Shown: piece by piece, positions 1-40,629 of the stretch
Layout: the number at the start of each line of letters is the position of its first letter
Position numbering within the stretch: position 1 is the stretch's first letter
NCBI GenBank assembly: GCA_964590105.1
Contig: CAZPYM010000001.1
Span: 160,395-224,394, forward strand
Source of the DNA: an uncultured Gammaproteobacteria bacterium
Lineage (GTDB): Bacteria > Patescibacteriota > Patescibacteriia > UBA11705 > JABHMO01
Reading direction: 5' to 3'
Length of the DNA stretch: 64,000 nt
Program-made: the position numbers and the translations under genes
The notes under the pieces: generated by a model
The model's database searches: none
What the model was told of the DNA's origin: nothing
What the model saw: only the letters and a program-made list of their open reading frames with translations

Positions 1-693
1 GCCGATCCATTCGGACTCAAACTGTTTTTCAAATACGGGTTTTAACAGCGACAAAAAACGCTCGATGAATTTTGACGCAAAATATCCCAACAGTTCGATT
101 GATTCGGACAACGACTGCGAACGAAAAAATTTCTTCTTGCCGAAAGTCCTCTCGTCAAACATATCTTTGCTTAAATACTTGCAGACATACACTCCGACAT
201 TGTTTACATTGTCTATTTTGTTGATCTTGATAAAACCTTGTCCCCAGAGAGATTGAATTTCGGCGATTTCAACAAACGGCAATTTGCAAAGCAGGTGATA
301 ATGAACCGCCCCCCGTTTTTGAAATTCGGGAACGGCGAGGTATTCAAAGTCAGGGTATTTGTAGGAAATACGCTTGATGAACTGATTGAAGATATAATTC
401 GCTTCTTTCAGGTCGGTGATGTTTTCGGCAAAAGTCAAAGTCATGAATTTGTTTAATTGCGGGTTGGAGTTGGTCAGCCGGCGGATTTCGGTTTTAGTCC
501 GATTAAGCGAAAATTTCATTTTCTGTTTTTGCGCTTCCAGCTGTTCAAAGGCGTCTAATTGTTTTGGCTCTTTTTGAGGTTTTATATTTTCAAATTGTTT
601 CGTTTCATAATCCCGCCAGATATGTTTTTTGTATTTGAATACTTCAACCTGCTTGCCCGACACCACAACCTTTAAGTTGTAGGGGTAAGCCAT
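1..693 (-). CDS. Rolling-circle replication initiator (HUH endonuclease, pC194/Rep_trans family); 5' partial, runs off the window start.
   Basis: Translating the minus strand by hand from the ATG at 693 gives MAYPYNLKVVVSGKQ... It carries motif I FMTLTF, motif II VHYHLL (HUH) and motif III VYVCKYLSKDMFDE, which resembles the pC194 Rep catalytic YxxK/E region. There is no stop before position 1. The ORF track missed it because it is open-ended. Confidence 0.75.
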   Translation of the reverse strand, partial: MAYPYNLKVVVSGKQVEVFKYKKHIWRDYETKQFENIKPQKEPKQLDAFEQLEAQKQKMKFSLNRTKTEIRRLTNSNPQLNKFMTLTFAENITDLKEANYIFNQFIKRISYKYPDFEYLAVPEFQKRGAVHYHLLCKLPFVEIAEIQSLWGQGFIKINKIDNVNNVGVYVCKYLSKDMFDERTFGKKKFFRSQSLSESIELLGYFASKFIERFLSLLKPVFEKQFESEWIG

Positions 694-774
694 AACAATT
701 TTTCGTTAGATGTGTGGTTATAATCAAGTTAAGAGAAAGCCGATTTTGACTCTCTTTGATCCGTTTACGGCAAC

Positions 775-814
775 CTTTTTTGCCGTCGGTCGGGCAACCC
801 GCCGGACAAAAAAG
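775..814. terminator. GC-rich imperfect hairpin flanked by T6 and A6. Candidate bidirectional terminator or origin-associated stem-loop between rep and the next gene.
   Basis: The sequence is ttttttgccgtcggtcgggcaacccgccggacaaaaaa. Its GGGC/GCCC core stem and the T6/A6 flanks can pair. Confidence 0.25.
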
Positions 815-1032
815 CTTGCCCGTCAAAAATTCGGAAGCCTCAAGACAAAATTCAAAATTCAGTGGCTGTTTTCCGCATCAGGTCAAGTCATTTTAGCGTC
901 AGCTTTTCCCGAATAAAGGTAGTGCGAAGCCTCCACCTTGACTCGGGCAAGCTATCAGACGCTGTGTCTTGCCTGTCCGATACGGCAAACGGCCGGCCTG
1001 CGGACATTTATCATCGGCCGAAATTCATTTAT

Positions 1033-1356
1033 ATGAATAAACAAATTGCGTCCGCTTGGACGGGTTCGGAAAAAACTTCCGACATAGTCCGAAGGCAGAT
1101 TCGCGCCCGCTGGGGCGAAGAAGAAGCCGGCAATTACGATCCTAAAAGTAATTGCTTGACTTTCAGAAGCTGGATTAAAAACGGCTTCAAGGTCAGAAAA
1201 GGCGAAAAAGCCTTAAAGTCCTTTATCGTTATTGAAGAAAAGGACAAGAACGGCCAAACCGTCTGCAAATATCCGAAAAGTATCAGTCTTTTCTATATTC
1301 GGCAGGTTGAGCCGATCGGCAAAGCCTCGAGCGAGGCTACAGTGAGCGAGTCCTAA
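1033..1356 (+). CDS. ArdC-N-like (DUF1738-like) putative ssDNA-binding domain protein. Uncertain.
   Basis: Internal ATG of ORF 862..1356. LTFRSWIKNGFKVRKGEKALKSFIV and SLFYIRQVEP resemble the ArdC N-terminal W.TF.qw...G..VrKGEKg ... vFnveQ signature. It lies on the opposite strand to the phage genes. Confidence 0.4.
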   Translation: MNKQIASAWTGSEKTSDIVRRQIRARWGEEEAGNYDPKSNCLTFRSWIKNGFKVRKGEKALKSFIVIEEKDKNGQTVCKYPKSISLFYIRQVEPIGKASSEATVSES

Positions 1357-1379
1357 CGGATTCGCTCACTTTTTGCCGT

Positions 1380-2078
1380 TTACTTTCTGCTTGTTTTCGA
1401 GTAAGGGGGAATTTCGTTTGAGTTTGGAACCAGTCCCGTGTTGTCGTTTGAGTGTTCCTTTTCGTATTCTCGGTGATATGGGAAAGCGGGATATTCGATA
1501 AAGTTGACCGCTTCATGGGTGTTGTAGCAGTTCGCTTTGGCTTTGCTTAACAGAAAAAATTTTCTTTTCACTGCCCGCCGTCTGATGTTGTCGTCTTTTA
1601 AGTCCTGAAGTTCGAAATACGAAACCATGAACAAAACATGAAACATGTTTTTCACTTCGGCGAAGTGCTGACCCAAATCCCTGATTCGCTTGTCGATGTT
1701 CGAGGTGTGCTGAACGCCCGCCCAAATGTCCAAAGGAATAATTTTGCCGTCTTTGTCTTTTTTGACATCGTGCCTGTGAGCCGAAAACTTCTGCTTGGCC
1801 GAGGGTGGCATTTCCTGCCATTCTCTCGAGTCGAAGTAGCCTTGAGCCTCGTCTATAAAAATTTGCCCGCCTTTTATATGAAGAAGCTCGGGAATTTCCG
1901 ACCAGAAATACACTTTGCCCAATTTCGCTTTATCAATCTTTTTCTTTTCCACATACTTGGAAAAATCCAGTTTCCAGTTGGCGTAAACATCGTAGCCTTT
2001 CAAAAACATTTCCAATGCTCGGTAAGTCATGTAAAGCGTTTTTCCGGCTCCGGGTTTGCCCGTGATGATCGTTATCAT
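1380..2078 (-). CDS. Zot/pI-like P-loop NTPase (filamentous phage assembly ATPase family).
   Basis: MITIITGKPGAGKTLYMTY is a Walker A, and there is a Walker B-like IFIDEAQ. Its position after the pIII/pVI-like genes matches inovirus gene I. It is shorter (232 aa) than classical pI and lacks a TM tail. Confidence 0.65.
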   Translation of the reverse strand: MITIITGKPGAGKTLYMTYRALEMFLKGYDVYANWKLDFSKYVEKKKIDKAKLGKVYFWSEIPELLHIKGGQIFIDEAQGYFDSREWQEMPPSAKQKFSAHRHDVKKDKDGKIIPLDIWAGVQHTSNIDKRIRDLGQHFAEVKNMFHVLFMVSYFELQDLKDDNIRRRAVKRKFFLLSKAKANCYNTHEAVNFIEYPAFPYHREYEKEHSNDNTGLVPNSNEIPPYSKTSRK

Positions 2079-2088
2079 AATTATTTGT

Positions 2089-2334
2089 TTAAGCCTTAAA
2101 GAAAGTGGCGACTTTCATTACCAGAGTAAACAGGAATAAAGTCATTTCCACGAAAAGAACGAGAAGCAGTATCTTGAACAAAACGAATATCGGGAATATC
2201 AGGTCTATTTTTGCGAATGTCGGATTCATCAGAGCGAAAGCGTTATTGACCGCCGTAATGACGGCGTTGCTCGGGTCTGCTTCGGGCAGAAGCCCGAAGA
2301 GTTTAATCAAGATTGTTTCGATGAGATCAAGCAT
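2089..2334 (-). CDS. pVI-like small hydrophobic minor virion protein. Positional call.
   Basis: An 81-aa, largely hydrophobic protein between the pIII-like and Zot-like genes, matching inovirus gVI placement. Confidence 0.4.
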   Translation of the reverse strand: MLDLIETILIKLFGLLPEADPSNAVITAVNNAFALMNPTFAKIDLIFPIFVLFKILLLVLFVEMTLFLFTLVMKVATFFKA

Positions 2335-2339
2335 ATTGG

Positions 2340-4013
2340 TTATTCGTTATCGCTAAAGAGGTGCGTAATCCGAAAGATCACATACACAGCGAACACCAGC
2401 CAAAGAATGGCCACGATGTAAGGACGAAGGCCGGCTGTAAAGTTCTTGACTCTTGAGTCGCTCGCGGAAAATATTTTTACATCCATGTTATACTCGCCGT
2501 CGCCAGAAACCGACTTGAATGTAATGTCGAGGGCGTTGTCGGAAGCGTCCGCATAATCGCCGTTAAACATGTCATAAAACCCGTCGTGAAAAGCGAAGTA
2601 ATAATTGAAGATGATTTTTTTCTTGAGTTCCTCGACCAAACGGGGAAAGAAATAATCGTAATCATCGGGGTTGTAGATAAAGTCCAAATCGGAAACATAA
2701 ATCCCGAACGGATATTGTCTTTTCATTTCGCCCGATTCGGTAAGCTGGACGACATAGTGCAGTCCCTGTTCCTCCGAAGCCTCGAAGTTGACCGTGTAAT
2801 TCCAAGTGTCCGGCATATCCGCCAAATCTTCGTTGTGATAGTTTGCGTCAAGAAGATTGCCGTCGGAGTCATACTGCTTAATGTTGAAATTCATGTTGGC
2901 AAGCTGTTCTTCGGGATAGACAAAGCCGAATGTTATGTCGGCATAAGTCGATCCCGCTGGTAGAGTCAGAGCCGTGTCGAAAATCGGCGAATGAATTTTG
3001 ATGTCATAGTCGTCATAATAATCGAAGTTGAAATACCAGTCGTCGGGATAGCCCTCGATGACTTCGATTCCGTCGACCTCGATAAAATCCATAAGCTCGT
3101 CGTAGTCCACACAGTCGCCCGAAACGCTGTCGATTTCTCTCGCAATAATTCTGTCAGTCAGTCCGCTTTTGTAGAACTGTCCCGAAAATGTCCCGCCCGT
3201 GCAGGCGACCGTGTACTGAATGTCATCAAATCCCAAACAGTCGCTCGTAAATCCGATTCGGTTGGCGCCGTCGGTCGGACATACGCCCTCTATGGTCAGC
3301 CAAGTGTCGTCGATCACGACTTCGCCGTGTTCGGGACTGGAAATGTAAAACGGTGGAGGATTGTTTGACTGAAACAATACATCGTCGAAATAGCCGTAAT
3401 TCTGATCGTAGTTTTGCAGATTCAGATCAACAATGTTCGTGGTTTCGGGGGTAATGCTCACGGGAAAATCGTAATAAGCGGAATACTCGCCGTCGTTTAC
3501 TTTCGCCCGGCATTTTCTGTTTTCAAGATCGTAGTTGACGGTAATGGTCGTCCAAGTATTTGATGTGAATGTTCCGACCGTTGTCGTTCCCTCACCGTGC
3601 AGAAGCTGAACAGTGTTGTCATAGGTTTTGGTCATACAGACATCCATGCTGTTCTCATTTCGGGGACGAAATTCCATTCTTTGCGTATTGCCTCCGCTCA
3701 CACTGCTTTTGTAAAAAGCAAATGAGATCGAGTCCGAATAATCCAATAAATTCGTCCCTATCGTGTAGTGAATAGAACTGCTGTAAGTGCCTCGTTTCGA
3801 ATACACGCTTTTTTGCCCGGATAAAGCTTGTGCCGTCGAAACGGTCGCGGAGCCGTAAACCACAGTCCAATCGCCCTGCCCGTTAAGGTCGCCGACTGAA
3901 AATCCCTCGAAATCTTGATTTGTCCAAGTCGAAGCTAAAGCCGACATTGGAAACAGTACGGAAGCGGTCAGCAATAAGATCGACATTATTTTTAGTTTTG
4001 TATTTCCTTTCAT
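2340..4013 (-). CDS. pIII-like receptor-binding/adsorption minor coat protein. Secreted, with a C-terminal membrane anchor.
   Basis: I chose the start at ATG 4013 (MKGNTKLKIMSILLLTASVLFPMSALAS signal peptide) with AAGGA 8 nt upstream; the ORF-track start at 4052 is a TTG. It is rich in D/Y/N/G, and the C-terminal TM is RPYIVAILWLVFAVYVIF. It sits directly downstream of the major coat gene, as inovirus gIII does. Confidence 0.5.
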   Translation of the reverse strand: MKGNTKLKIMSILLLTASVLFPMSALASTWTNQDFEGFSVGDLNGQGDWTVVYGSATVSTAQALSGQKSVYSKRGTYSSSIHYTIGTNLLDYSDSISFAFYKSSVSGGNTQRMEFRPRNENSMDVCMTKTYDNTVQLLHGEGTTTVGTFTSNTWTTITVNYDLENRKCRAKVNDGEYSAYYDFPVSITPETTNIVDLNLQNYDQNYGYFDDVLFQSNNPPPFYISSPEHGEVVIDDTWLTIEGVCPTDGANRIGFTSDCLGFDDIQYTVACTGGTFSGQFYKSGLTDRIIAREIDSVSGDCVDYDELMDFIEVDGIEVIEGYPDDWYFNFDYYDDYDIKIHSPIFDTALTLPAGSTYADITFGFVYPEEQLANMNFNIKQYDSDGNLLDANYHNEDLADMPDTWNYTVNFEASEEQGLHYVVQLTESGEMKRQYPFGIYVSDLDFIYNPDDYDYFFPRLVEELKKKIIFNYYFAFHDGFYDMFNGDYADASDNALDITFKSVSGDGEYNMDVKIFSASDSRVKNFTAGLRPYIVAILWLVFAVYVIFRITHLFSDNE

Positions 4014-4079
4014 AAATATCCTTTTAAGACGAAAGCGGGGGCTTTTGCCCAAAGTAGTGGCAAGCCCCCGCCGTCAGGC

Positions 4080-4349
4080 CTATCGCATGAAGCGTCTTGC
4101 CAATCGCCAGACGAAGCCGATTGAGAAGATGATCACACCCACAATCACGATGTTGGTGATATTAGCGGTGATAACACCGACAATGTTCTCTTTCATCGTG
4201 TCCACCACACTGGCGGTGGTTGCGGCGACATCCGTGTCAACGGCCGCGAAAGCGGTTGATCCCGCCAACAGTCCGCCTGCTACCGTAAGTGAAAGGGCGG
4301 TCAGTTTGGCCTTGCTTCCCGAGATTAAGCCTTTGATTTTGGTCATCAT
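4080..4349 (-). CDS. Inovirus major coat protein (pVIII-like) precursor.
   Basis: An 89-aa precursor with a signal peptide ending ...STAFA. The mature ~54-aa peptide has an acidic N-terminus, a hydrophobic core (IVIVGVIIFSIGFVW) and a basic C-terminus RLARRFMR, which is the classic g8p architecture. Confidence 0.6.
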   Translation of the reverse strand: MMTKIKGLISGSKAKLTALSLTVAGGLLAGSTAFAAVDTDVAATTASVVDTMKENIVGVITANITNIVIVGVIIFSIGFVWRLARRFMR

Positions 4350-4354
4350 AAGTT

Positions 4355-4507
4355 TTATGAGTTAATTTTTTTAACGAATAACGATAGTACGCCGACCACT
4401 GTCCCGATTATCAGACCGAGGACAATCGCTTTAGCGAAGACGGTTCCTATTAAAAGGAAATCATCCAAGTAGCACGAATTGTTCAGTAAAATATAAGCGG
4501 AACACAT
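4355..4507 (-). CDS. Small hydrophobic virion/assembly protein (pVII/pIX-like). Not in the ORF track (<60 aa).
   Basis: My manual translation gives MCSAYILLNNSCYLDDFLLIGTVFAKAIVLGLIIGTVVGVLSLFVKKINS (50 aa). It is packed 5 nt upstream of the major coat gene. Confidence 0.35.
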   Translation of the reverse strand: MCSAYILLNNSCYLDDFLLIGTVFAKAIVLGLIIGTVVGVLSLFVKKINS

Positions 4508-4508
4508 A

Positions 4509-4619
4509 CTATTTGCCCGAAATAATCGCTAAAAAAATGCTCAAGACCGTGTATAAAACAAGAGGAAAAACGAGGCTCAATCCCACTCCGGCGAATAAAT
4601 TGTTTATCATTCCTGCCAT
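4509..4619 (-). CDS. Small hydrophobic protein (pVII/pIX-like), 36 aa.
   Basis: My manual translation gives MAGMINNLFAGVGLSLVFPLVLYTVLSIFLAIISGK. It lies 1 nt from the neighbouring mini-ORF. Confidence 0.3.
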   Translation of the reverse strand: MAGMINNLFAGVGLSLVFPLVLYTVLSIFLAIISGK

Positions 4620-4621
4620 AT

Positions 4622-4774
4622 TTAGGATTTGAAAATAATCAGGAGGATTATCAACGCCAGCAGTCCGAAGATGACCGCAAATGAAACCGTCAGCAGTTGG
4701 CTGAAAAAATTGATTAAATCCAACGCTTGATCGGTCAGAGCGTATGTTTCGGTTGCCGTTGTAAGAAAATCCAT
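4622..4774 (-). CDS. Small hydrophobic protein (pVII/pIX-like), 50 aa.
   Basis: My manual translation gives MDFLTTATETYALTDQALDLINFFSQLLTVSFAVIFGLLALIILLIIFKS. It lies between the pV-like and coat genes. Confidence 0.35.
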   Translation of the reverse strand: MDFLTTATETYALTDQALDLINFFSQLLTVSFAVIFGLLALIILLIIFKS

Positions 4775-4777
4775 AGA

Positions 4778-5041
4778 TTATTTTTTGTTCGGGATATAGT
4801 AATCCGCGAAAGCCCGCTTTCGTTTCTTGTCCTGAATGTAGTAAGGGAAGATAGACACATTTAAAGACACAGTGTCGCCTTGTTTTCCGATTTTCAAGTC
4901 CATATCGGACACATTAACTTTAATCGGATAGACGCTTCCTTCGGGTTCGATAAAAAGCGTCCGGCTTTTTCCTTCACTCCCGTCTTTGCGGGTGAATTCC
5001 CTTATCTCCTCTTTTTTGAGGACTCCTGTAAGTTTGAACAT
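4778..5041 (-). CDS. Putative ssDNA-binding protein (pV-like, OB-fold-like).
   Basis: An 87-aa protein (the same size as Ff g5p). Its beta-rich pattern includes G/K residues and a conserved aromatic (VYPIKVNV...VSLNVSIFPYY). It is first in the phage structural gene string, as gV is. Confidence 0.4.
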   Translation of the reverse strand: MFKLTGVLKKEEIREFTRKDGSEGKSRTLFIEPEGSVYPIKVNVSDMDLKIGKQGDTVSLNVSIFPYYIQDKKRKRAFADYYIPNKK

Positions 5042-5206
5042 AACTTTTTTGGCTTTTGGTTAATTAGCTCGCAATCGACCTTTTATATTTGCGATTATGT
5101 TTCAAGCATAGAAAATCAATATTCTGAAAAGTTCAGGTAGCCGTTTTCAGAACAATAAAAAAAGCCCCGAATTAAGGGACTTTTACGGTCTTGTTTTTTA
5201 GAATTT

Positions 5207-6013
5207 TTACAGGTATTTACGGTTCAGTTTTACCTTGCCTTTTTTGCCGGTATTGAATTTAAGAAAATCTTTAATGCCGACGGCCTGTTCGATTTTCTTG
5301 TTCAATTCCGCACAGGAGTTGTTGTATTTTTTCCAGTTGTTTTTGTTGGCTTTGTATTCGAGTTCGCCGAATTCGTCCTCGGCGATTTCCGAATAATAAA
5401 AATCGTCGGTCAGATTGTCTTTGTTGGTTATGAAAATATAGTGCAGTATTTTATGGGCGTTCGTTATTTTATCCTGTTTGCTTATCCTGATTTTGTTTCC
5501 TTTAAAGTGAAGTTCGCTTTTGTCTTCATTGAAAAAAGTTTTTTCGTCCTTGTCGTCGCCGTTTAAAAAACACTCCTGATCCAGTCGGTCGAAAATTTCG
5601 CTGTTTACAACTTTGAACGACAAAATCAGCATTTGCTTAGAATAGGGTTTTGAAAAAAGATGACAAAGTGCGCTTAATTCTTCCTTATCATAAGTTCGAC
5701 ATTTCCTCATTTTCTTCATTTTTCCGTAGATTATTTCCAGATTGCTGTAATATGTCCAAAACTCATGCGAAAAAATAGCTTTGCCTTTGACATCGAGAAA
5801 TTTGTCCTCGTCCATACAGTCATCGGGTTCGCCGATGATTTTCGCCGTGTCATCGAATATGCTTTGAAGGATGTTTTTAACGAGCGGGTCGGTGTTAAGG
5901 AAGTAAATGTATTTGTAAACGATAACAAACCGCTGAAAAAAGTTCCGTTCGATCGAAAAAAGACGAGCAAACTCGTTCATCTTTTCTTTGATGTTTTGAG
6001 CGGTAAACTGCAT
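5207..6013 (-). CDS. Hypothetical protein (268 aa from the first ATG; the ORF-track start at 6070 is a TTG).
   Basis: Long ORF with no recognisable motif. It lies between the YjzC-like minigene and the phage module. Confidence 0.4.
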   Translation of the reverse strand: MQFTAQNIKEKMNEFARLFSIERNFFQRFVIVYKYIYFLNTDPLVKNILQSIFDDTAKIIGEPDDCMDEDKFLDVKGKAIFSHEFWTYYSNLEIIYGKMKKMRKCRTYDKEELSALCHLFSKPYSKQMLILSFKVVNSEIFDRLDQECFLNGDDKDEKTFFNEDKSELHFKGNKIRISKQDKITNAHKILHYIFITNKDNLTDDFYYSEIAEDEFGELEYKANKNNWKKYNNSCAELNKKIEQAVGIKDFLKFNTGKKGKVKLNRKYL

Positions 6014-6073
6014 GGCTTTGGGGTATAAAAATGCTTTTTGTTCACAGAAAAGCCAGCAAGAGTGAGTCAAAGT

Positions 6074-6244
6074 TTATCGGTTTTTATGCTTTGTCCTGTC
6101 GACAAGTGTAAAAACCTTAGCTTTGCCGTCATACGGAGGAACACGGTCTCCGCCCGAGAGAGTGATCTCTCGTTTTGTGCCGGTCGGTCTGTACTGACCT
6201 GACACTTTCGCGGTTTGACCCGTCCTGACTTTTACCTTAGGCAT
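6074..6244 (-). CDS. YjzC-like small protein (56 aa). Not in the ORF track.
   Basis: My manual translation gives MPKVKVRTGQTAKVSGQYRPTGTKREITLSGGDRVPPYDGKAKVFTLVDRTKHKNR. The pattern G..A..SG.Y...G.....I.L..G...PP resembles the YjzC family. Confidence 0.35.
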   Translation of the reverse strand: MPKVKVRTGQTAKVSGQYRPTGTKREITLSGGDRVPPYDGKAKVFTLVDRTKHKNR

Positions 6245-6421
6245 AAGTTTGAGGTTAGGTGAATTAGAAATAGAAGCGTCCGACTTTAATCCGCTCCCAA
6301 CTCTGAAAACCTGAAACAGATTTTCAAAAGGAGAGCGATTAAAGTGAGCTAGGCTAAATCATTTTTCACAGCCCCCAAGCTTATTCTCTCGCTGGCTTTA
6401 CTGAAAACAAATTGTAAAATT

Positions 6422-7021
6422 TTATTTTAAATTTCTTATAATTTTTACAACTACACCCCTTATTTCAATTTCTTTTCTATACATCGGTTTATATGTCGGA
6501 TTAGCCGGTTGCAGTCTAATGTTGTCTGTTTCCTTGTAATATTTTTTTAATGTTGCTTCGTTGTCTTCCAGTACGGCCACTATTGTGTCGCCGTTTTCAG
6601 CCGTTTCTTGTTTTTTTACAATTATGATGTCGTCGTCGAATATACCGTCGCCGATCATGGAGTCGCCCTTTGCCCGCAAAGCATAAAGATTTCCTTTAAG
6701 CATAGGTTCTCGGGCTATTCTTACGGTTTCATCTTGTTCTTCAACAGCTTCAATCGGGCTACCGCAGGCAATTACTCCTTTTATGGGTATTTCAAGGTAT
6801 TGGTTTCTTTTTTTAGGCAAATACAAGCCCCGCTCCTTGCGTTCGTCTTTGGCTAAATATCCTTTATCCACAAGCTCGGTTATATGTTCATGCACGGTTG
6901 AGAGGGCGGACAGCCCGAATTTTTCGCCTATCTCTTCATAAAACGGGGAATAACCGTGTTCCTTGATGTATTTGGCGACGAAGTCCAATATCTGCTTTTG
7001 TCTTTTAGTCAGGGTATTCAT
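6422..7021 (-). CDS. lexA: LexA-family repressor (wHTH + S24 peptidase).
   Basis: An N-terminal LexA-type wHTH (LTKRQKQILDFVAKYIKEHGYSPFYEEIGEKFGLS...) is followed by a C-terminal S24 domain with catalytic GDSM Ser and a downstream Lys (ATLKKYY). It is about 199 aa. Confidence 0.8.
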   Translation of the reverse strand: MNTLTKRQKQILDFVAKYIKEHGYSPFYEEIGEKFGLSALSTVHEHITELVDKGYLAKDERKERGLYLPKKRNQYLEIPIKGVIACGSPIEAVEEQDETVRIAREPMLKGNLYALRAKGDSMIGDGIFDDDIIIVKKQETAENGDTIVAVLEDNEATLKKYYKETDNIRLQPANPTYKPMYRKEIEIRGVVVKIIRNLK

Positions 7022-7033
7022 ATGCTATTATAA

Positions 7034-7062
7034 ATTATACCCGAACTGTCCCCGAAGTGCAA
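7034..7062 (-). promoter_or_regulatory. Sigma70-like promoter for lexA (-35 TTGCAC, 17-nt spacer, -10 TATAAT, read on the minus strand).
   Basis: The reverse complement of 7022-7062 reads TTGCACttcggggacagttcgggTATAATttataatagcATATG. No clear palindromic SOS box was recognised. Confidence 0.35.
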
Positions 7063-7183
7063 CATGTAAAATTTGTGGACAAAGATAAATAAAAAGGCTA
7101 TAATTTAAGCAACAAATTAATATATTACTACAAAATTGCGGATGCTCTTGGCGTTTCGCTTGATGATTTAATGAAATAAAAAT

Positions 7184-7537
7184 ATGGAAATAATAAGTTT
7201 TATTATTAATATTGTTCAGGTCATCATTTCAGTACTTAGTTGGCCTTTCAGAAAAATACGAAATATTATGGAAATAAAAAAAATCAGAATAAAACAAAAA
7301 GCTGATCATTTACAGGATGTTAAAGGGATGAGTGTTGATTTGGGTAATGGTGAAAAGGTGCAAATAAACGATGTAGATATTGAGCAACAGGCCAAAACTC
7401 TACAAAATACAACGGGTATGGAATTTAAAGCAACAGGCAAGCAAGAGGCGGAATTGGAAAATATAGACATAAAGAGTCCGATTGGCAGAGTAAAAATTTC
7501 AAAGGGGGTAACTATTAACAAACAAGTGGATCAATAA
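7184..7537 (+). CDS. Hypothetical small protein (117 aa; could start at an internal Met). First gene of the MTase operon.
   Basis: Its ORF ends 3 nt before the methyltransferase start. No recognisable motif. Confidence 0.3.
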   Translation: MEIISFIINIVQVIISVLSWPFRKIRNIMEIKKIRIKQKADHLQDVKGMSVDLGNGEKVQINDVDIEQQAKTLQNTTGMEFKATGKQEAELENIDIKSPIGRVKISKGVTINKQVDQ

Positions 7538-7539
7538 TT

Positions 7540-8556
7540 ATGGCAATATCTTCAAATAAAAATTTACGCAGTGCTAATAAGGCAAAGAAAGATGAGTTTT
7601 ATACTCAGCTTTCAGATATTGAAAAGGAATTAGGGCATTATAAAGAACATTTTAAAAATAAAGTCGTATATTGCAACTGCGATGATCCGCGTGTGAGTAA
7701 TTTCTTTCATTATTTTTCTTATAATTTTGAAAGGTTAGGTCTGAAAAAGTTAATTACCACTTGTTATAAAAATCAGGAAGTAAATTTGTTTAGTCAAAAT
7801 AATTCTGAAAAAGCAATTTATTTGGAATACAAGGGAGATAAAAATGAAAAAAATGTTCCAGACATTGAAGAAATTGGGGTTAAACATTTAAGAAAAGATG
7901 GCGATTTTCGTAGTGAGGAAAGTATAGAACTTTTGAAACAAACCGATATTGTTGTGACAAATCCACCGTTCTCTTTATTTAGAGAGTATGTAGCACAACT
8001 CATGGAGTATGATAAAAAATTTATAATTATTGGAAATTTGAACGCATTAACTTATAAAGAAATATTCAAATTAATTAAAGAAAATAAGATGTGGTTAGGA
8101 GCGAGTATTCATAGTGGCGATAGAGAGTTTGGGGTTCCAAAAGATTATCCATTAACCGCCGCCAGTAGCAGGATTGATGAGAATGGAAATAAATACATTA
8201 GAGTTAAGGGGGTGCGTTGGTATACAAATTTAGATTATAAAGAAAGACATGAAAATTTAATTCTTTATAAAAAATATAAAGGACACGAAGACGAATATCC
8301 AAAATTTGATAATTACAATGCCATTAACATAGACGTGACAAAAGATATTCCAATGGATTATAAGGGTGCAATAGGTGTACCAATTACTTTTATGGATAAA
8401 TACAATCCTGATCAATTTGATATTATTGATGGCATAGGAAGATATAGCATGCTAACAGGGCCCACTGATAAAACAAGAGGAACTTATTTAACTAAAATTG
8501 ATGGTAAACCTAAATATGCACGAATTATTATAAAAAATAAGAAAGTTAATAAATAA
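7540..8556 (+). CDS. N6-adenine (amino-)DNA methyltransferase, EcoRI-methylase-like family.
   Basis: VVTNPPFSLF is motif IV (NPPF). The N-terminal KKDEFYTQ...KVVYCNCDDPRVSNFF...LGLKKLITTCYKNQ matches what I recall of the M.EcoRI family. That is a recollection, not a search. Confidence 0.65.
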   Translation: MAISSNKNLRSANKAKKDEFYTQLSDIEKELGHYKEHFKNKVVYCNCDDPRVSNFFHYFSYNFERLGLKKLITTCYKNQEVNLFSQNNSEKAIYLEYKGDKNEKNVPDIEEIGVKHLRKDGDFRSEESIELLKQTDIVVTNPPFSLFREYVAQLMEYDKKFIIIGNLNALTYKEIFKLIKENKMWLGASIHSGDREFGVPKDYPLTAASSRIDENGNKYIRVKGVRWYTNLDYKERHENLILYKKYKGHEDEYPKFDNYNAINIDVTKDIPMDYKGAIGVPITFMDKYNPDQFDIIDGIGRYSMLTGPTDKTRGTYLTKIDGKPKYARIIIKNKKVNK

Positions 8557-8560
8557 AATT

Positions 8561-9643
8561 ATGAAAATAGAACTTAAAAAAATTACAGTCAGTGAATTAA
8601 CTAACGGCTTTAAAGATAACGACGAAAACGGTGTTGTGGGTTATGGTGGCAAACTTGATATTCGCCCGCCTTATCAAAGAGAGTTTATTTATAAAGATAA
8701 ACAAAGAGACGCCGTTATTGACACTATCACAAGAAACTTTCCTCTAAATGTAATGTATTGGGCTGTGCGTGAAGACGGAAATTTTGAAGTAATAGACGGA
8801 CAACAAAGGACAATTTCAGCTTGCCAGTATGTTAATGGCGATTTTTCGGTGGACGGACTGGCTTTTCATAATTTAACAAAAGATAAGAAAGAACAAATTT
8901 TAAATTATGAATTGACGATATATTTTTGCTCTGGTACTGATAGCGAAAAATTGGAATGGTTTAAAATAATTAATATTGCTGGAGAAAGATTAACCGATCA
9001 AGAATTGAGAAATGCGGTTTATTCGGGTTCGTGGGTATCTGACGCTAAACGCTATTTTAGTAAAAATGGTTGTGCCGCTTATGGAATTGGTAGCGATTAT
9101 CTGAATGGCTCGCCAATTCGGCAAGAATATTTAGAAACTGCTATTAAGTGGATTTCTAATGGGAAAATTGAAAATTACATGTCAAAACACCAGCACGATC
9201 AAAACGCAAGTGCTTTATGGAGATATTTTCAAGATGTTATTACTTGGGTAAGTACAACTTTTACTAAAAAAAGGAAATTTATGAAAGGGGTTGAGTGGGG
9301 TACTCTTTACAACACTTACAAAGACGAAAAATATAATACGAAAGAAATTGAAGAAGAAACAGAAAAATTAATACTTGATGATGATGTAACAAAAAAGAGC
9401 GGTATTTATCCATATATTTTAACTCGCAATGAAAAATATCTTTCTATTCGTGCCTTTTCAGACGCTACCAAACAAAAAATATTTGAGAAACAAAAAGGAG
9501 TTTGCGTAGTATGTAAAGAAAAATTTGAAATTGAAGAAATGGAAGCAGATCATATTACACCTTGGCACGAGGGTGGCAAAACAACAGACAAAAATTGTCA
9601 GATGTTATGCAAAGAATGTAATAGACGAAAGTCTGGTAAATAA
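8561..9643 (+). CDS. DUF262 (ParB-like, DGQQR) + C-terminal HNH nuclease. Putative restriction/type IV-like endonuclease.
   Basis: The N-terminus has IRPPYQREFIY...EVIDGQQRT (DUF262/GmrS-like). The C-terminus CVVCKEK...ADHITPWHEGGKT...NCQMLCKECNRRK is an HNH with two CxxC pairs. Confidence 0.75.
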   Translation: MKIELKKITVSELTNGFKDNDENGVVGYGGKLDIRPPYQREFIYKDKQRDAVIDTITRNFPLNVMYWAVREDGNFEVIDGQQRTISACQYVNGDFSVDGLAFHNLTKDKKEQILNYELTIYFCSGTDSEKLEWFKIINIAGERLTDQELRNAVYSGSWVSDAKRYFSKNGCAAYGIGSDYLNGSPIRQEYLETAIKWISNGKIENYMSKHQHDQNASALWRYFQDVITWVSTTFTKKRKFMKGVEWGTLYNTYKDEKYNTKEIEEETEKLILDDDVTKKSGIYPYILTRNEKYLSIRAFSDATKQKIFEKQKGVCVVCKEKFEIEEMEADHITPWHEGGKTTDKNCQMLCKECNRRKSGK

Positions 9644-9650
9644 AAATTCA

Positions 9651-12600
9651 ATGCTTGAGACCTTAAAAAATAAAATACTAGCAAGAGTTACCGAATGGCG
9701 GCGAGAGCAGTCATTATTTAAGGCTGTACAAGCAGAAAAAAAGATAACTCCAAGTATAAAGAAAATTATTAATAAAGACACAAAACCTCTTTGGTTTTCT
9801 CTTTGGGAAGCCACAATCGTTGTAGCTTTATTTATTTTTTTCTTGATTTTGACGCACGCCCAGACACTTTTCCCATACGAAAAATTTATTGAATTTATGG
9901 AATGGCTTTATCCATTTCAAGGAAGTCCATTCGCACTAACAGACGGCAACCATTATCAGAATTTAATCGCAATACATGCTGGTATAGGTGCGGTTCTTAT
10001 TGGTTTAGCTTTTTTTCTTGCTCAAGAGATCGCAAAAGAAAAAAATAAAGAAGGTTCATACAAAGGATTTGTCATATTACGCAGAACTCGATTTTTCACT
10101 CTTTTACTAGCTGAGATTTTATTTTTCTTTATTTTCGCTTGGGGGTCAGTAAATATCTTGGCAACTATTCCAGTATTTTTAATAGGAATTTTTACCCTTT
10201 ATTCTTTATATAATGCCTTACACTTAATTTTTGATAACTTTGAATTAAAGAAGGAAGAAAAAAAGATATTTTCTGCTAGTTTACATAATAGTTTTCTGAA
10301 AGTTTTAGATTTAGAAATTACAAAGCTAATTGGCGACAGTCAACTACGCAATCTATCAAAGGATTATGAAGGGTTTATTGAAATAACCCCATTTTCTCCT
10401 GTTAATAAACAAAACTACACACCTATTAAAACAAATAAGTCGGGTATATTTACTAACTTAAACCTGAAAACATTAAAAAATTTATTAACAAAGCTTGAAG
10501 AGAAAGCTCCAATGGAAAACGAAGTAGCCACAATGGGTTCTGCCCCTCAAGCTACAATATCTAATCCAAGAACGAGAAATCCTTATTGTTATTTATCGCC
10601 ACGCTTCTTTTCTGATACTAAAGAAGTAAATGATGTGCTTCTTTGGGTTCGAAATGATCTGTTAAAAGATGAGGAAGTTGCAGGCGAGGTTAAAGAACTT
10701 ATACGCAAAGCATTTACAATAACAAAGCTAGATTTTGATTTAGAGCATGCACGAAACGATATAAGAAAATTAAAACTTCTTTCTTTGGATTTAGTAAAGG
10801 ATCAGAGAGGTGATGAACTAAGTGAAGTTTTAAATAATTATACAAAGCTCATTGAGGATTTCTATTCATATTTGGAACCATACGGCGGAGGCTTTTCAGA
10901 AAAGCAAGCCCACGATATGTCTATGGAGATATTTTTCGGAGGACTCAAACCCGTGGCATGGATAAGTGAGGATATTCGGGAAATATTTGAGCGAGGCATT
11001 GAATCTGATAGCAAGGAAATCATTAAAGAAGTTGCTTATCTTCCCGTGCGTTTAATACGATACGCCATTGATTATAAAGACCACTTGATTTTTCAACAAT
11101 TTCAATATTATCCATTTAGACTATATCAAGCTCATGTAAATGCGAAAAAAGCAGGAAAGGATGAATTGGCTACTTTTCTTTTTGATAGATCTTGGCGTTA
11201 TCTAAAAGAAATTTCTGATTATTACTTAGAGCCCAAACTGAAAAAAGATGAAGATTATCCAGAAGAAGAGGTGCGTAATTTTGCATGTGCGATCCTAAAA
11301 ATATTCCAAGGATTGCTTAAAAACTCTTTTGACGAAAGAGATGTTGAAAGTTTTAAAACATACCTATCAACAGCCAGTGGTCTTTTTAGACATTTAGATA
11401 TTACAGATCGTTATGAGAACGAAAAAACAGAGCAGATCGCAGATTTTCTTAAGAACAAAAAGAATGAAATGCTATTTGGTCTTGCCAGCTGGATTTTTTA
11501 TAAACTTGCTCAAAATAAAGACGAGGAAGTAGTTAAACAATTTTATAATGTTATTCAGAACTCCACTCCCTCAAAAATAGAGGAACTCACAAATATATTT
11601 TCTCGTACGCATAGTTTTGAAGTGGAAGATTTTTGGGGGTGGGATAATTGGGAAATGTCCGAAAAAGGAGAGGGGCAAGTACACTCAATACAAATTCTCG
11701 AGAAGTTGGAAAAATTTTACGCGATTAGATCACTTTCTCTTTTATCAGCAAAAAGTAATGAAGAGATTGAAAAAATAGAATTACCACATTCAAGAGATTT
11801 GGCTTATTTAGCAGAAGGCACAAGAGATTTAGTGAAAACTCTCGATGATATCAAAACAAACCCTAAAAACTGGCACTTTGTTTTGAATGATAATTCTATA
11901 AACAAAGTTGATCTGCTAAAAGCTTTACTCACTAAAGCAAAAGAAGTGCAGGAACAAGAAGAAGTGGAACTTAAGAAAGAACAAGCAATTTCACAAAAGC
12001 GAGTACAGGAATTTAAAAAAGAAGTATTGAAGACTTTCTATGAGGGCGCAAATATGCGAGATATTTTTGCAAAACACTTCAACGCATACGAGGATAATAC
12101 AAAAGAGAAGACCGATAAAAAAGATCGATTTGGAATAAACATTGTTGACGATAAAGCATCATTCTTTGACGAGTGGCATGTTCACTATGTTGGTTGTGGT
12201 GAAAACTATGGTCGTGATCTCGCTTCTGGTGAAAATTCATATCTGCTTGATGACATGGCAAAAAATTGTACGGAAATTTCTAAAGAAAATTTTGAGGCAA
12301 CGCTGGCAAAAATTGAAAATTCAGACGATATAGTAATTTTTGCTACAAATATTGCATTTTGGCGATTTTTTGAAGACTCAAAGAACTTCAAGCCAAAGTG
12401 GCAGAGGGATATTGAACAACTTGATGTTAAGGGATTTGGTGGCTGGTATGACTTCAATGGAAAATCAATTCCTGTTTTCGAGACATATCACAGAAAGGTT
12501 GATAAACAGATTTTGATTTTGAACAAATCAAAAATTGGAAAATTTATTCAGTTGTCTCCGCTCAACGAAGAAGAGAAAGAAGAATCTATTGAGGATATTT

Positions 12601-12809
12601 TCTATATGGACATACAGGCATTTTCCGAAAACGAGGAACTGATGGAAGAATTTATCAAAAAACCGCCAGAATGGTTAAAGCAAATTGGAGACGAACAGAA
12701 ACAACGTGAACATTTACGAGAACGAGTTCGTATTCAGATTTTTGAAAGATTTCAGTATAACAAGTCAGAAGTTTTTGAGGGATACAAGCTATTTTTAAAA
12801 GAAGATTAA
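9651..12809 (+). CDS. Large (1052 aa) membrane-anchored protein of unknown function.
   Basis: I chose the start at the first ATG (MLETLKNK...), 8 nt after the HNH stop; the ORF-track start at 9525 is a TTG overlapping the HNH gene. It has 4-5 N-terminal TM helices and then ~800 aa of soluble sequence with no Walker or other catalytic motif I recognise. Confidence 0.5.
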   Translation: MLETLKNKILARVTEWRREQSLFKAVQAEKKITPSIKKIINKDTKPLWFSLWEATIVVALFIFFLILTHAQTLFPYEKFIEFMEWLYPFQGSPFALTDGNHYQNLIAIHAGIGAVLIGLAFFLAQEIAKEKNKEGSYKGFVILRRTRFFTLLLAEILFFFIFAWGSVNILATIPVFLIGIFTLYSLYNALHLIFDNFELKKEEKKIFSASLHNSFLKVLDLEITKLIGDSQLRNLSKDYEGFIEITPFSPVNKQNYTPIKTNKSGIFTNLNLKTLKNLLTKLEEKAPMENEVATMGSAPQATISNPRTRNPYCYLSPRFFSDTKEVNDVLLWVRNDLLKDEEVAGEVKELIRKAFTITKLDFDLEHARNDIRKLKLLSLDLVKDQRGDELSEVLNNYTKLIEDFYSYLEPYGGGFSEKQAHDMSMEIFFGGLKPVAWISEDIREIFERGIESDSKEIIKEVAYLPVRLIRYAIDYKDHLIFQQFQYYPFRLYQAHVNAKKAGKDELATFLFDRSWRYLKEISDYYLEPKLKKDEDYPEEEVRNFACAILKIFQGLLKNSFDERDVESFKTYLSTASGLFRHLDITDRYENEKTEQIADFLKNKKNEMLFGLASWIFYKLAQNKDEEVVKQFYNVIQNSTPSKIEELTNIFSRTHSFEVEDFWGWDNWEMSEKGEGQVHSIQILEKLEKFYAIRSLSLLSAKSNEEIEKIELPHSRDLAYLAEGTRDLVKTLDDIKTNPKNWHFVLNDNSINKVDLLKALLTKAKEVQEQEEVELKKEQAISQKRVQEFKKEVLKTFYEGANMRDIFAKHFNAYEDNTKEKTDKKDRFGINIVDDKASFFDEWHVHYVGCGENYGRDLASGENSYLLDDMAKNCTEISKENFEATLAKIENSDDIVIFATNIAFWRFFEDSKNFKPKWQRDIEQLDVKGFGGWYDFNGKSIPVFETYHRKVDKQILILNKSKIGKFIQLSPLNEEEKEESIEDIFYMDIQAFSENEELMEEFIKKPPEWLKQIGDEQKQREHLRERVRIQIFERFQYNKSEVFEGYKLFLKED

Positions 12810-12872
12810 TCCCGAAAATATAAAATATTTACAGCTATTTTTTTAATAGACCTGTAAATTTTCCACAATACA

Positions 12873-12901
12873 AGTTCTAACATCGTCCGCGACCCCGAGC
12901 C
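12873..12901. repeat. 29-nt direct repeat copy 1 (gttctaacatcgtccGcgaccccgagcca), followed by a hairpin and T-run.
   Basis: It matches 16837-16865 at 28 of 29 positions. It is followed by AAAAGCTCTTCACacttaGTGAAGCGCTTTTGTTTT, a terminator-like hairpin. Confidence 0.6.
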
Positions 12902-13112
12902 AACAAAAGCTCTTCACACTTAGTGAAGCGCTTTTGTTTTGACGAATAACCTTACAAATTAATACAACAGCCAGTGTTTTCAATTGATGTTATATTGTAA
13001 ATAAATAATCCCCTCTAAAAATTGACAAATTATAATTATGGGTATATACTCACTATAAAGATATCCAAAGGTCGAATAGCTAATCGTTATTAAAACATAA
13101 CCATACAAATGT

Positions 13113-13461: not shown

Positions 13462-14199
13462 ATGAAATTAAAAAACAAAGTAGCTATTATTACCGGTGCC
13501 GCCGCTGGTATCGGTAAAGCAATCGCTGAAAAATTTATCAGCGAAGGTGCACTTGTGGTTTTTTCTGATGTCAATGGAGACGATTCTTTCGTTTCTGAAT
13601 TTGGTGGAAAAGCCTTATTTATAAAATGTGATGTTTCTAATTCCAACGAGGTAGACAATTTAATACGCGCAACAGTTAATCATTTTGGCAAAATCGACAT
13701 TATGGTCAACAATGCTGGGATTGGTGGTTTGGGCGGTATTATAGATGTAACCGACGAAAGTTGGGCTAAAACTATAAGTATTAATCTTTCAGGGACAATG
13801 TATTGTATGCGTTCCGCTGCCAAAGCAATGAAAGATCTAGCAATTAAAGGATCAATTATAAATTTAAGTTCTATTTTGGGAAAAGTAGGCTTTAATGGAG
13901 CTATTGCTTATTGCGCCTCCAAAGGAGGCGTAGTTCAACTCACACATGCGGGGGCACTTGATCTTGCCTCGCTACATATTCGGGTAAACGCCATCGCCCC
14001 CGGATTTATTGAGACTAACATGACGAAAGATCTCTTAGAACAAAAAGAATTTAATGATTTAGTTACTTCTTCGACGCCACTCGGTTATGTCGGAAAAACA
14101 AAAGACATTGCTAATGCAGCCGTTTATCTTGCTTCCGACGACTCAAGCTACGTAACAGGCAGTGTTATTTATGTTGACGGAGGCTGGACGGCAAAGTAA
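13462..14199 (+). CDS. SDR family oxidoreductase (FabG-like).
   Basis: TGAAAGIGKA is the Rossmann motif, NNAGI is present, and the catalytic YCASKGG (YxxxK) is present. Confidence 0.85.
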   Translation: MKLKNKVAIITGAAAGIGKAIAEKFISEGALVVFSDVNGDDSFVSEFGGKALFIKCDVSNSNEVDNLIRATVNHFGKIDIMVNNAGIGGLGGIIDVTDESWAKTISINLSGTMYCMRSAAKAMKDLAIKGSIINLSSILGKVGFNGAIAYCASKGGVVQLTHAGALDLASLHIRVNAIAPGFIETNMTKDLLEQKEFNDLVTSSTPLGYVGKTKDIANAAVYLASDDSSYVTGSVIYVDGGWTAK

Positions 14200-14207
14200 T
14201 CAATTTT

Positions 14208-14498
14208 ATGTCAAGACCACAACAATGCTTATGTAAAGCGATAAAATTTAAACCGAATATCAGCTACTTTAAACCACAAGGGGTTCCCATGCGGGATTTA
14301 AAAGTAGTAGAACTTTCGTTAGAAGAAATTGAGGCTTATCGTCTTCGTCATATAGAGGATATGGATCAACAGTTAGCGGCAGAAAAAATGAAAACATCAA
14401 CTAGTACTTATCAAAGAATCCTTAACTCCGCCTACAAAAAGGTCGCGGATGCTATCACCAACGGGAAGGCGATTAAAATTATTAAACACAATAACTAG
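14208..14498 (+). CDS. DUF134/UPF0251-family predicted DNA-binding protein.
   Basis: FKPQGVPMRDLKVVELSLEEIEAYRLRHIEDMDQQLAAEKM...ADAITNGKAIKI matches the conserved UPF0251 layout (F.P.G.P...L...E.EA.RL.D). Confidence 0.55.
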   Translation: MSRPQQCLCKAIKFKPNISYFKPQGVPMRDLKVVELSLEEIEAYRLRHIEDMDQQLAAEKMKTSTSTYQRILNSAYKKVADAITNGKAIKIIKHNN

Positions 14499-14499
14499 T

Positions 14500-15240
14500 A
14501 TGCTGACATTATTAATGATAATTAGCGGGACTTTCGTTATTACTCTATGTGTTTGGGTGGCAGTGCTGTTTATTTTTCTAAAAAAAGAAAACCTAACAAA
14601 AATTACAATGTTCCTCGTTTCTCTGTCAGCCGGCGCCTTAATGGGTGGAGCTTTTTTGCATTTAATGCCCGAGGCTTCAGAACAAATAAGGGCAGACCTA
14701 TTGTTCGGAATTTTCCTTGTCTCTTTTGTAGTTTTCTTTTTGATAGAAAAACTTCTCCACTGGCGGCATTGCCATAAAGCTGACTGTCCGATTCACACTT
14801 TTGGTCACATGAATTTGATCGGCGACAGCATCCATAATTTCATAGATGGGTTGATAATCGCTAGTACATTCATGGTTAACCCAAGCTTAGGCATCGCAAC
14901 CACATTAGCTGTGGCTATTCACGAAATCCCCCAAGAAATTGGTGATTACGGTGTACTGATCCATGCGGGATTTAAAAGCAAAAAAGCCTTAATCCTTAAT
15001 TATTTAGTTGCTCTTACTGTAGTGCTAGGCGGAATAGTTGGATATTTCTTTTTTTCTCATTTGAATAATGTATTACCATACCTCCTTCCCTTTGCGGCTG
15101 GTGGCTTTGTTTATATTGCCGCCTCTGATTTAATGCCAGAAATAAGAAAAGAAACCAACCTTAAAAAATCCATAGGCACATTCATAATATTTATCACGGG
15201 CATATTACTTATGTATTTAGTAAAATTAATAAATCACTAA
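14500..15240 (+). CDS. ZIP family metal (zinc) transporter.
   Basis: It has the HEIPQEIGDYGVL signature, His-rich TM helices and multiple TMs. I chose the start at the ATG just after the upstream stop. Confidence 0.75.
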   Translation: MLTLLMIISGTFVITLCVWVAVLFIFLKKENLTKITMFLVSLSAGALMGGAFLHLMPEASEQIRADLLFGIFLVSFVVFFLIEKLLHWRHCHKADCPIHTFGHMNLIGDSIHNFIDGLIIASTFMVNPSLGIATTLAVAIHEIPQEIGDYGVLIHAGFKSKKALILNYLVALTVVLGGIVGYFFFSHLNNVLPYLLPFAAGGFVYIAASDLMPEIRKETNLKKSIGTFIIFITGILLMYLVKLINH

Positions 15241-17947: not shown

Positions 17948-18003
17948 AATTTTGCTTTATTAAAAAATCCCGTCGGTGTAGCCGCGGGATTTTGGTTTGC
18001 CTT

Positions 18004-40579: not shown

Positions 40580-40629
40580 TTTGCCTTTTTATTTTAAAAT
40601 CATTAAAATTAATTAAGAACAATATAATA

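Follow-up and report, generated by a model that had tools for sequence, protein, structure and literature searches.

Gene content and integration state of the element

The 64,000-nucleotide stretch analysed here (hereafter the window; contig CAZPYM010000001.1 of GenBank assembly GCA_964590105.1, positions 160,395–224,394) begins with a compact gene array on its minus strand. Read from high to low coordinates, positions 5041 to 1 encode a small, putative single-stranded DNA (ssDNA)-binding protein, three hydrophobic mini-proteins, a major coat protein precursor, a pIII-like adsorption protein, a pVI-like protein, a Zot/pI-like assembly ATPase, and a rolling-circle replication initiator (Rep), i.e., a complete Ff-like morphogenesis and replication gene set. 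We consider it highly probable that these genes at the window start form one end of a temperate prophage of inovirus-like (Tubulavirales) type that is intact and resides in a chromosome of the Patescibacteria (Candidate Phyla Radiation, CPR). An initial annotation had placed an inovirus-like element here, with its genes ordered as in Ff and a secretin missing. All open reading frames (ORFs) that it listed were found on the minus strand of positions 1–5041 by ORF listing and translation, profile matches of Zot and Rep, well beyond chance level, supported the assignment together with the gene order, and the same array recurred in more than 30 loci, the window proteins having been mapped on 34 to compare gene order and identity. 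No secretin-like gene was found in the element by Pfam profile search and gene listing. The span of 1–5041 held for these genes but not for the extent of the element, since the conserved core runs at least to position 7045. A conserved opposite-strand ORF (1033–1356) and the conserved genes past 5041 had been omitted from that description.

Exact-sequence look-up of the Zot protein located the same DNA (100% identity) within a 237,112-bp contig of the European Nucleotide Archive (ENA) and in several shorter contigs, and a 563,767-bp NCBI contig carried the window's host proteins. The rep gene is cut by the window edge, as had been recognised from the outset. Extension upstream along the 237-kb contig yielded, in order, its last 28 codons, a 72-aa ORF, a 127-bp spacer, a 544-aa large serine recombinase (LSR), a tRNA-Asn(GTT) gene, and host genes (NYN, Macro, NUDIX, and DHH). 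Because the identical sequence runs on into the LSR, the tRNA, and host genes, the window copy is integrated rather than episomal; of the two states initially left open, only the integrated one stood. An episomal circular inovirus genome, misjoined to the chromosome by assembly, would agree with the occurrence of several 5–6 kb contigs that carry the phage core only. These contigs proved to be linear pieces of the long contig (100% identity), and their break points were scattered and are therefore not attachment (att) sites. Moreover, both junctions were crossed in assemblies made independently (of 237, 23, and 563 kb), and relatives of the element lay within contigs as long as 621 kb, which makes a misjoined episome extremely unlikely.

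The LSR (L001, 12507–14141, outside the window) exceeded the Pfam cut-offs for the Resolvase (PF00239, 63.8 bits), Recombinase (PF07508, 36.4 bits), and zinc-ribbon (PF13408, 31.7 bits) domains. The tRNA-Asn(GTT) gene lies on the opposite strand (L007, 19043–19117), and the final 42 nt of the LSR ORF overlap it. Among LSR-bearing relatives, the integrase ORF entered a tRNA gene antisense by 15–61 nt in 15 of 15 loci (L007 at 17450–19117, L017, L035, L038, L041, L042, and L044–L052), the overlapped genes being those for tRNA-Asn, -Glu, -Gln, -Trp, and -Ser. Where the target is tRNA-Asn or tRNA-Glu, the LSR ORF ends with a stop codon that overlaps the anticodon. This stop codon was ruled out as a marker of the crossover, since the ORF in the Gln cases continues 21 nt beyond the anticodon. 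According to a survey (PMC7192596), large serine integrases are not known to target tRNA genes.

Across CPR genomes, six tRNA targets were found next to an integrase (Asn, Glu, Gln, Trp, Ser, and Gly). L036 (Falkowbacteria) carries a tyrosine integrase and an HTH_17 excisionase-like ORF instead of the LSR, and its two ends carry identical 25-bp direct repeats that correspond to the 3′ end of tRNA-Gly. These att repeats delimit an 11.4-kb prophage with an abortive infection (Abi) gene inside, bounded by a host trigger-factor gene. L020 keeps only the 5′ half of tRNA-Asn, fused to phage DNA at the anticodon loop. Two such junctions between phage DNA and the 5′ half of the tRNA lie in tandem at 14396–14552 of this locus, about 110 nt apart and with no intact tRNA, which looks like a remnant of repeated integration or a target-destroying integration. 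As a separate observation, two differing tRNA-Asn(GTT) genes are located about 58 kb apart, one at the prophage junction, with a typical bacterial sequence, and one at window positions 56511–56585, with a different sequence.

Replication genes and a candidate origin

The part of rep within the window (1–693, minus strand) encodes residues 1–231 of a 259-aa HUH rolling-circle initiator, the remaining 28 aa lying before the window start (full-length gene at L001 11386–12165). Rep matched the full 99-position profile of PF23343 (REP_ORF2-G2P) with 75.3 bits (cut-off 27.8), and phrog_3419 ("rolling circle DNA replication initiation") at E = 4.7e-31. Inspection of the sequence showed the motifs FMTLTF, HYHLL, and YVCKYLSKD at positions 447, 303, and 189, and motif 3 (YVCKYLSK) comprises two tyrosines (YxxKY). 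A two-tyrosine motif 3 is the arrangement of phiX174/P2-type HUH proteins, whereas the pC194 type has one tyrosine and a glutamate. Rep had initially been labelled both as a Rep_trans (PF02486, pT181/CTXphi RstA type) and as a pC194-type (Rep_1, PF01446) protein. Neither profile was matched at E ≤ 1, the two tyrosines of motif 3 also disagree with the latter type, and the assignment was corrected to PF23343. The closest Reps among deposited phages were those of uncultured inoviruses (37% identity) and of Ralstonia Rs551/RSM-type inoviruses (28%).

At the other end of the array, positions 4778–5041 (minus strand) encode an 87-aa protein whose AlphaFold2 (AF2) model was all-beta, with a mean predicted local distance difference test (pLDDT) score of 92.9. 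The best fold matches were OB domains of archaeal replication protein A (RPA; probability 1.0, TM-score 0.48), followed by the Ff gene V protein (pV; TM-score 0.33), all with E ≥ 0.1, and a profile search against PDB sequences returned RPA OB domains at E ~0.01. No Pfam or PHROG match to the Ff gene V family was obtained. Judging from the model, the protein is best described as a putative OB-fold ssDNA-binding analogue of Ff pV outside the gene V family.

Between zot and rep, a conserved ORF of 107 aa from its ATG (1033–1356) lies on the plus strand, antisense to the whole phage operon. It showed a weak ArdC-N-like ssDNA-binding domain (PF08401) with 22.4 bits, under the cut-off of 22.6, and its homologue in L017 scored over it (25.0 bits). 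The ORF was conserved at 59–75% identity in nearly all relatives covering the zot–rep gap, being undetected in L037 and L049, and its ratio of non-synonymous to synonymous substitution rates (dN/dS) was 0.18–0.23. Homologues at other loci reach 160–189 aa. By its sequence, the product may be an anti-restriction or regulatory protein.

A non-coding element of about 130 nt was located between the small ORF that follows rep and the integrase gene (L007, 17308–17438), approximately 290–420 nt before window position 1. It was 74–88% identical in 18 of the 21 loci compared and contains the invariant motifs GGGGCGG and CCGTCCCTTTTTG. Its stems covary, and the RNAalifold pairing differs from that of single-sequence folds. 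This conserved element is an obvious candidate for the replication origin or a packaging signal.

Virion and assembly proteins

The 232-aa Zot/pI-like assembly ATPase (1380–2078, minus strand) contains Walker A (GKPGAGKT) and Walker B (IFIDEA) motifs. The family that had been proposed for it was confirmed by its match to PF05707 (34.4 bits, cut-off 20.3), and the PHROG families matched were phrog_197 ("Zot-like toxin", E = 3.8e-18) and phrog_1675 ("morphogenesis, protein I of M13", E = 2.4e-9). A transmembrane (TM) segment was absent from the protein (maximum KD19 hydropathy 0.91) and from all of its 230–250-aa homologues. Zot was at most 29% identical to that of any inovirus among deposited phage genomes.

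Upstream of zot, an 81-aa hydrophobic protein at the pVI position (2089–2334, minus strand) has a TM-like stretch at residues 38–79. It yielded no hidden Markov model (HMM) match and was found at a fixed position in the relatives with 58–90% identity and a dN/dS of 0.03–0.04. The 557-aa pIII-like adsorption protein (2340–4013, minus strand; the ORF extends to 4052 if started at TTG) has, by hydropathy, a signal peptide at residues 7–30 and an anchor at 525–554, and gave no Pfam or PHROG match. Only its C-terminal 60–65%, approximately, was alignable in most relatives. Among relatives, no part of the element varies more than the N-terminal third of this protein, as would be expected of a receptor-binding domain.

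The 89-aa major coat protein precursor (4080–4349, minus strand) combines a signal peptide (residues 19–37) and a TM helix (55–85), both assigned by hydropathy, with an acidic mature N-terminus and a basic tail (RLARRFMR); the mature protein has this one TM helix only. Its HMM matches were all weak and comprised phrog_12997 (unknown function, E = 0.019), phrog_34573 ("major head protein", E = 0.05), and TrbC/VirB2 pilin (E = 0.018); its dN/dS was 0.05–0.09. Three mini-ORFs of 50, 36, and 50 aa (4622–4774, 4509–4619, and 4355–4507, respectively, all on the minus strand) each encode one TM helix and occupy the pVII/pIX position. Their order was kept among relatives, with dN/dS values of 0.08–0.24.

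Gene by gene, the order, sizes, and features of this set agree with those of Ff; the PHROG families matched by Zot are inovirus morphogenesis families, and for Zot as well as Rep, the closest relatives in the databases come from inoviruses. An inovirus-detection study (PMC6813254) also placed a close relative among inoviruses, and no relaxase, coupling protein, or type IV secretion system (T4SS) genes were present in the element, as judged by profile search and gene listing. We therefore regard a non-viral integrative element, i.e., a rolling-circle plasmid or a pilus or secretion cluster with a soluble Zot-like ATPase and pilin-like small proteins, as very unlikely, even though the TM-less Zot, the weak pilin match of the coat protein, and an ArdC-N-like domain, which is typical of conjugative plasmids, would be in line with it, as would the fact that no annotated virion-protein family was matched significantly (E < 0.01) by a structural gene.

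Extent of the element, LexA-type repressor, and defence cassette

Beyond the structural operon, an intrinsic-terminator-like hairpin (5160–5184, minus strand; a nine-pair stem followed by a T run) separates it from a conserved element gene of 287 aa (5207–6070, minus strand; 268 aa as called on L001). This gene of about 270 codons was present in every relative reaching that far (52–77% identity), and its product had no Pfam, PHROG, or PADLOC match. A conserved basic 56-aa ORF follows (6074–6244, minus strand), shared with several relatives at 62–89% identity (dN/dS 0.09) and with a weak match to phrog_3202. Further on, a 199-aa LexA-type repressor (6422–7021, minus strand) has winged-helix (PF01726, 62.6 bits) and S24 autopeptidase (PF00717, 102.5 bits) domains. 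Its Cys-Gly cleavage motif (as in UmuD) and the GDSM and LKK motifs were read directly, and autocleavage is predicted. In 14 loci with non-syntenic flanks, lexA was co-conserved with the element, and DNA similarity to the Magasanikbacteria relative L017 begins 24 nt upstream of the lexA ATG, at window position 7045. Because lexA, the 56-aa ORF, and the ~270-aa gene accompany it amid unrelated flanks, the element reaches at least to 7045.

A divergent control region (7022–7183), with a promoter-like site matching 11 of 12 positions at 7076–7104 on the plus strand, lies between lexA and a cargo operon. This operon, a defence cassette on the plus strand (7184–12809), encodes a 117-aa ORF, a type II DNA methyltransferase (MTase; 7540–8556, PADLOC MTase_II E = 1.1e-132, Pfam EcoRI_methylase), a type II restriction enzyme (REase) of the DUF262/GmrSD-N+HNH type (8561–9643, PADLOC REase_II E = 1.3e-133, Pfam GmrSD_N and HNH), and a 1052-aa protein. 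The latter (9651–12809) had no Pfam match and a weak PtuA-like ATPase match (E = 1.4e-4). The G+C content (GC) is 42–47% in the core and 30–34% in the block beyond lexA. In nearly all relatives with enough flank, a differing, lower-GC MTase/REase/Abi cassette occupied the same position, L050 being an exception; among these cassettes are methylases (D12, N6_N4, C5, type I HsdM-S, or type III Mod) paired with ResIII, HinP1I, or AlwI nucleases, or an Abi_2 gene. Since the content of this position varies among relatives and the Abi gene of L036 lies inside the att repeats, the restriction-modification (R-M) cassette is probably, by analogy, the variable cargo of the element, which would then measure about 15 kb and reach to approximately 12.8–13.1 kb of the window. 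Most likely, the low-GC cassette consists of defence genes that the phage carries and from which the lysogen profits.

The most probable attL zone of the window copy is 12810–13112, where GC and gene content change and a terminator hairpin is found (12904–12940). A 7-nt match (GAGCCAA, 12897–12903) was rejected as an att remnant, being at chance level. Contig ends retrieved by exact look-ups of LexA and the 287-aa protein were likewise discarded as junctions, all being 100% identical sub-fragments of one locus. Since the loci share essentially no host gene, prophage borders cannot be set by comparative genomics. In several metagenomic relatives of the host adh_short gene (window 13462–14199), tRNA genes were located directly upstream (L056–L058, L063, and L066–L072), a suggestive arrangement that fits an ancestral tRNA neighbour at the presumed distal prophage end. 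In the Magasanikbacteria prophage, a homologue of the small ORF after rep (54% identity) lies beyond the R-M cassette (L017, 161–328; L046, 273–440), which hints at phage-related DNA on both sides of the cassette.

Relatives, host, and integrity of the prophage

Zot homologues fell into more than 70 clusters at 75–90% identity and occurred in 9 IMG/VR contigs and 21 GTDB species representatives. The conserved order was (lexA), the 56-aa ORF, the ~270-aa gene, the ssDNA-binding protein, the 50/36/50-aa mini-ORFs, coat, the pIII-like and pVI-like proteins, Zot, the antisense ArdC-N-like ORF, rep, the small ORF, the integrase, and the tRNA. Element proteins were 55–90% identical between loci, and the host flanks were non-syntenic. 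Element relatives were found in metagenome-assembled genomes (MAGs) of Candidatus Falkowbacteria, Magasanikbacteria, and Komeilibacteria, and the best named homologues of the host RarA (72–76% identity) came only from MAGs of Patescibacteria, Parcubacteria, Paceibacterota, and Portnoybacteria. By these sequence affinities the host is a member of the Patescibacteria, in agreement with the CPR-like genome suggested initially.

Several prophage contigs carry labels at odds with this host clade, namely "uncultured Gammaproteobacteria" (L034, L035, L037, L039, L042–L044, L048, L051, and L052), Omnitrophota (L040), Micrarchaeota (L053, a 2.8-kb contig), Cloacimonas (P0260), and Bacteroidales (P0300). 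These are probably default names or the result of mislabelling or misbinning.

A second variable spot was observed between the ~270-aa gene and the ssDNA-binding gene, with insertions of 1–2.8 kb (L026 at 2650–5450, L020 at 5843–6592, L043, L049, and L051) that include a nucleotidyltransferase-like gene; in L051 a tRNA-Met gene (6056–6127) lies inside the element at this spot. Distant relatives (L022–L024; Zot 53% and Rep 34% identity) were found in a 243-kb contig with neither integrase nor tRNA. They carry a separate Laminin_G_3 protein, have Mur ligase/FemAB and M23 peptidase genes as flanking neighbours, and may have another integration route. In the host part of the window, a SAM riboswitch (40628–40730; Rfam RF00162, 66 bits) was detected upstream of a 352-aa ORF.

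All ORFs of the window prophage are intact. Pairwise dN/dS values against relatives ranged from 0.03 to 0.24 for the ssDNA-binding protein, coat, the three mini-ORFs, the pVI-like protein, the antisense ORF, and the 56-aa ORF. For Zot, synonymous sites were saturated, and the proportion of non-synonymous differences (pN) was only 0.06–0.11. In view of this low dN/dS (and, for Zot, low pN), the small ORFs are real genes under selection. Such values would not be expected of a degraded or domesticated relic, i.e., an old, immobile filamentous prophage whose genes are kept, if at all, for a host function. Nor would the occurrence of the element at six tRNA targets beside non-syntenic host genes, the exchange of integrase modules between serine and tyrosine types, or the hypervariable N-terminus of the pIII-like protein, as expected from ongoing host-range selection on receptor binding. 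A conserved core with swapped integration modules, many targets, and purifying selection thus argues for a mobile, functional phage. A relic, with which it would agree that assemblies from all samples were 100% identical and chromosomal, is very unlikely.

The interpretation as an intact temperate prophage has several points against it. None of the IMG/VR relatives was circular by terminal overlap, and no displaced tRNA-Asn fragment or att repeat stood above background in the window (blastn-short, Smith–Waterman, and k-mer matching), both of which would also agree with a relic. With the distal att of the window copy not found, the inclusion of the cassette rests on analogy. A prophage-free site was not recovered in a metagenome search via the host adh_short gene, the neighbours of which were non-syntenic. 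At the protein level, Zot lacks the TM segment of canonical pI, the coat, pIII-like, pVI-like, and mini-proteins were assigned by features and position without a significant HMM match, and none of the modelled fold matches of the pV-like protein fell below E = 0.1. A filamentous virion with a circular ssDNA genome is predicted from the genes. Weighed together, the prophage is real and looks functional.

Proposed life cycle

The gene content suggests the following cycle. The LexA-like repressor, through its S24 autopeptidase, would silence the prophage until cleaved upon RecA-type signalling. The serine recombinase would then excise the element, perhaps aided by the small ORF downstream of rep, and the two-tyrosine HUH Rep would nick the origin, for which the conserved structured element that separates rep from the integrase gene is the probable site, and drive rolling-circle replication. 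The ssDNA produced would be coated by the 87-aa OB-fold protein, which at the membrane would be replaced by the coat, the three mini-proteins, and the pIII-like and pVI-like proteins, with the Zot ATPase powering this exchange. Since CPR cells lack an outer membrane, a secretin would be unnecessary for export.

Comparison with known filamentous phages

Filamentous phages were initially described as poorly documented in Patescibacteria-like lineages, which overstated the novelty of the find: inoviruses were reported from the CPR by Roux et al. (2019; Nat Microbiol, PMC6813254), whose Supplementary Table 4 holds 9 CPR sequences with, as named example, Ga0076004_106 (141 kb) of Magasanikbacteria GW2011_GWA2_56_11. 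This exemplar (LCRX01000006, L046 in our set) is a close relative, its Zot being 79–80% identical to that of the window, and the window prophage is a further member of the family reported in 2019. The published CPR inoviruses, including IMG/VR uncultivated virus genomes (UViGs) such as 2711768762_000001, share with it the gene order from lexA to integrase, the host clade, and a serine recombinase that abuts a tRNA gene, at identities of 79–90% for Zot, 72% for Rep, and 52–90% for coat. The exemplar differs in its tRNA target (Glu, as against Asn in the window), in its serine recombinase subfamily (25% identical), in the N-terminus of pIII, and in its cassette, which comprises a ResIII helicase-type restriction subunit and an N6_N4 MTase, whereas the window cassette is of a type II R-M/GmrSD-like kind.

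The value of the present analysis is mainly descriptive, consisting of a full gene map, the corrected Rep family, and the serine/tyrosine integration module at tRNA genes, together with the element-borne LexA-type switch, the candidate origin or packaging hairpin, and a defence hotspot comparable to that of Vibrio inoviruses. Since few prophages have been recognised in CPR bacteria, whose genomes are tiny, a well-preserved, widespread temperate filamentous family is useful for studying their virus–host biology and gene flow. We put forward only tentatively, and with more doubt than conviction, that tRNA-targeting LSRs, a soluble TM-less Zot, and a LexA-flanked R-M/Abi hotspot together are undescribed differences from textbook filamentous phages. 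A TM-less Zot, if true, would mean an assembly machine built differently from pI/pXI–pIV, and if all three differences are true, the family would be a main defence-gene exchange vehicle in supposedly prophage-poor bacteria.

Compared with the Ff phages (M13/fd/f1), the circular order of rep, ssDNA-binding protein, small hydrophobic proteins, coat, adsorption protein, pVI-like protein, and Zot/pI is the same, the 87-aa ssDNA-binding protein has the same size, and the coat is alike in its signal peptide and basic tail. Sequence similarity is confined to the ATPase domain (phrog_1675, 2e-9). The window Rep belongs to PF23343 and not to Phage_CRI, there are three mini-proteins instead of two, and the element, being temperate, encodes an integrase and a LexA-type repressor. 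Canonical Ff pI has a TM helix after its ATPase domain and a periplasmic domain contacting the secretin, whereas the window encodes neither a pIV secretin nor, in its ATPase, a TM helix and periplasmic domain.

Ralstonia RSM/Rs551-type inoviruses have a Rep of the same family (28% identity). Phage phiRSM integrates at a tRNA-Ser gene. Its recombinase is small and resolvase-like, in contrast to the LSR of the window element with its recombinase and zinc-ribbon domains; the hosts are diderm and the structural proteins are unrelated in sequence to those of the window. Integration of RSM-type phages through a serine recombinase is given in the survey PMC7192596 as a cited result (Askora et al., 2011). 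For the Thermus phages OH3, phiOH16, and Zuza27, the ATPase alone was compared: the alignment of their morphogenesis ATPase with the 232-aa Zot covers 96% of the latter at only 21% identity.

Finally, Vibrio CTX-like inoviruses hold interchangeable defence cassettes (R-M, Abi, and others) in so-called phage-encoded hypervariable regions (pHVRs; PMC12715192). The window family shares with them the presence of exchangeable defence cassettes at a fixed position of an otherwise conserved filamentous prophage, in another host phylum and another phage family, and with the cassette beside, and divergent from, a LexA-type repressor. The placement of the cassette within att sites was observed in L036, with its tyrosine integrase, and by analogy would extend to the copies with a serine recombinase.

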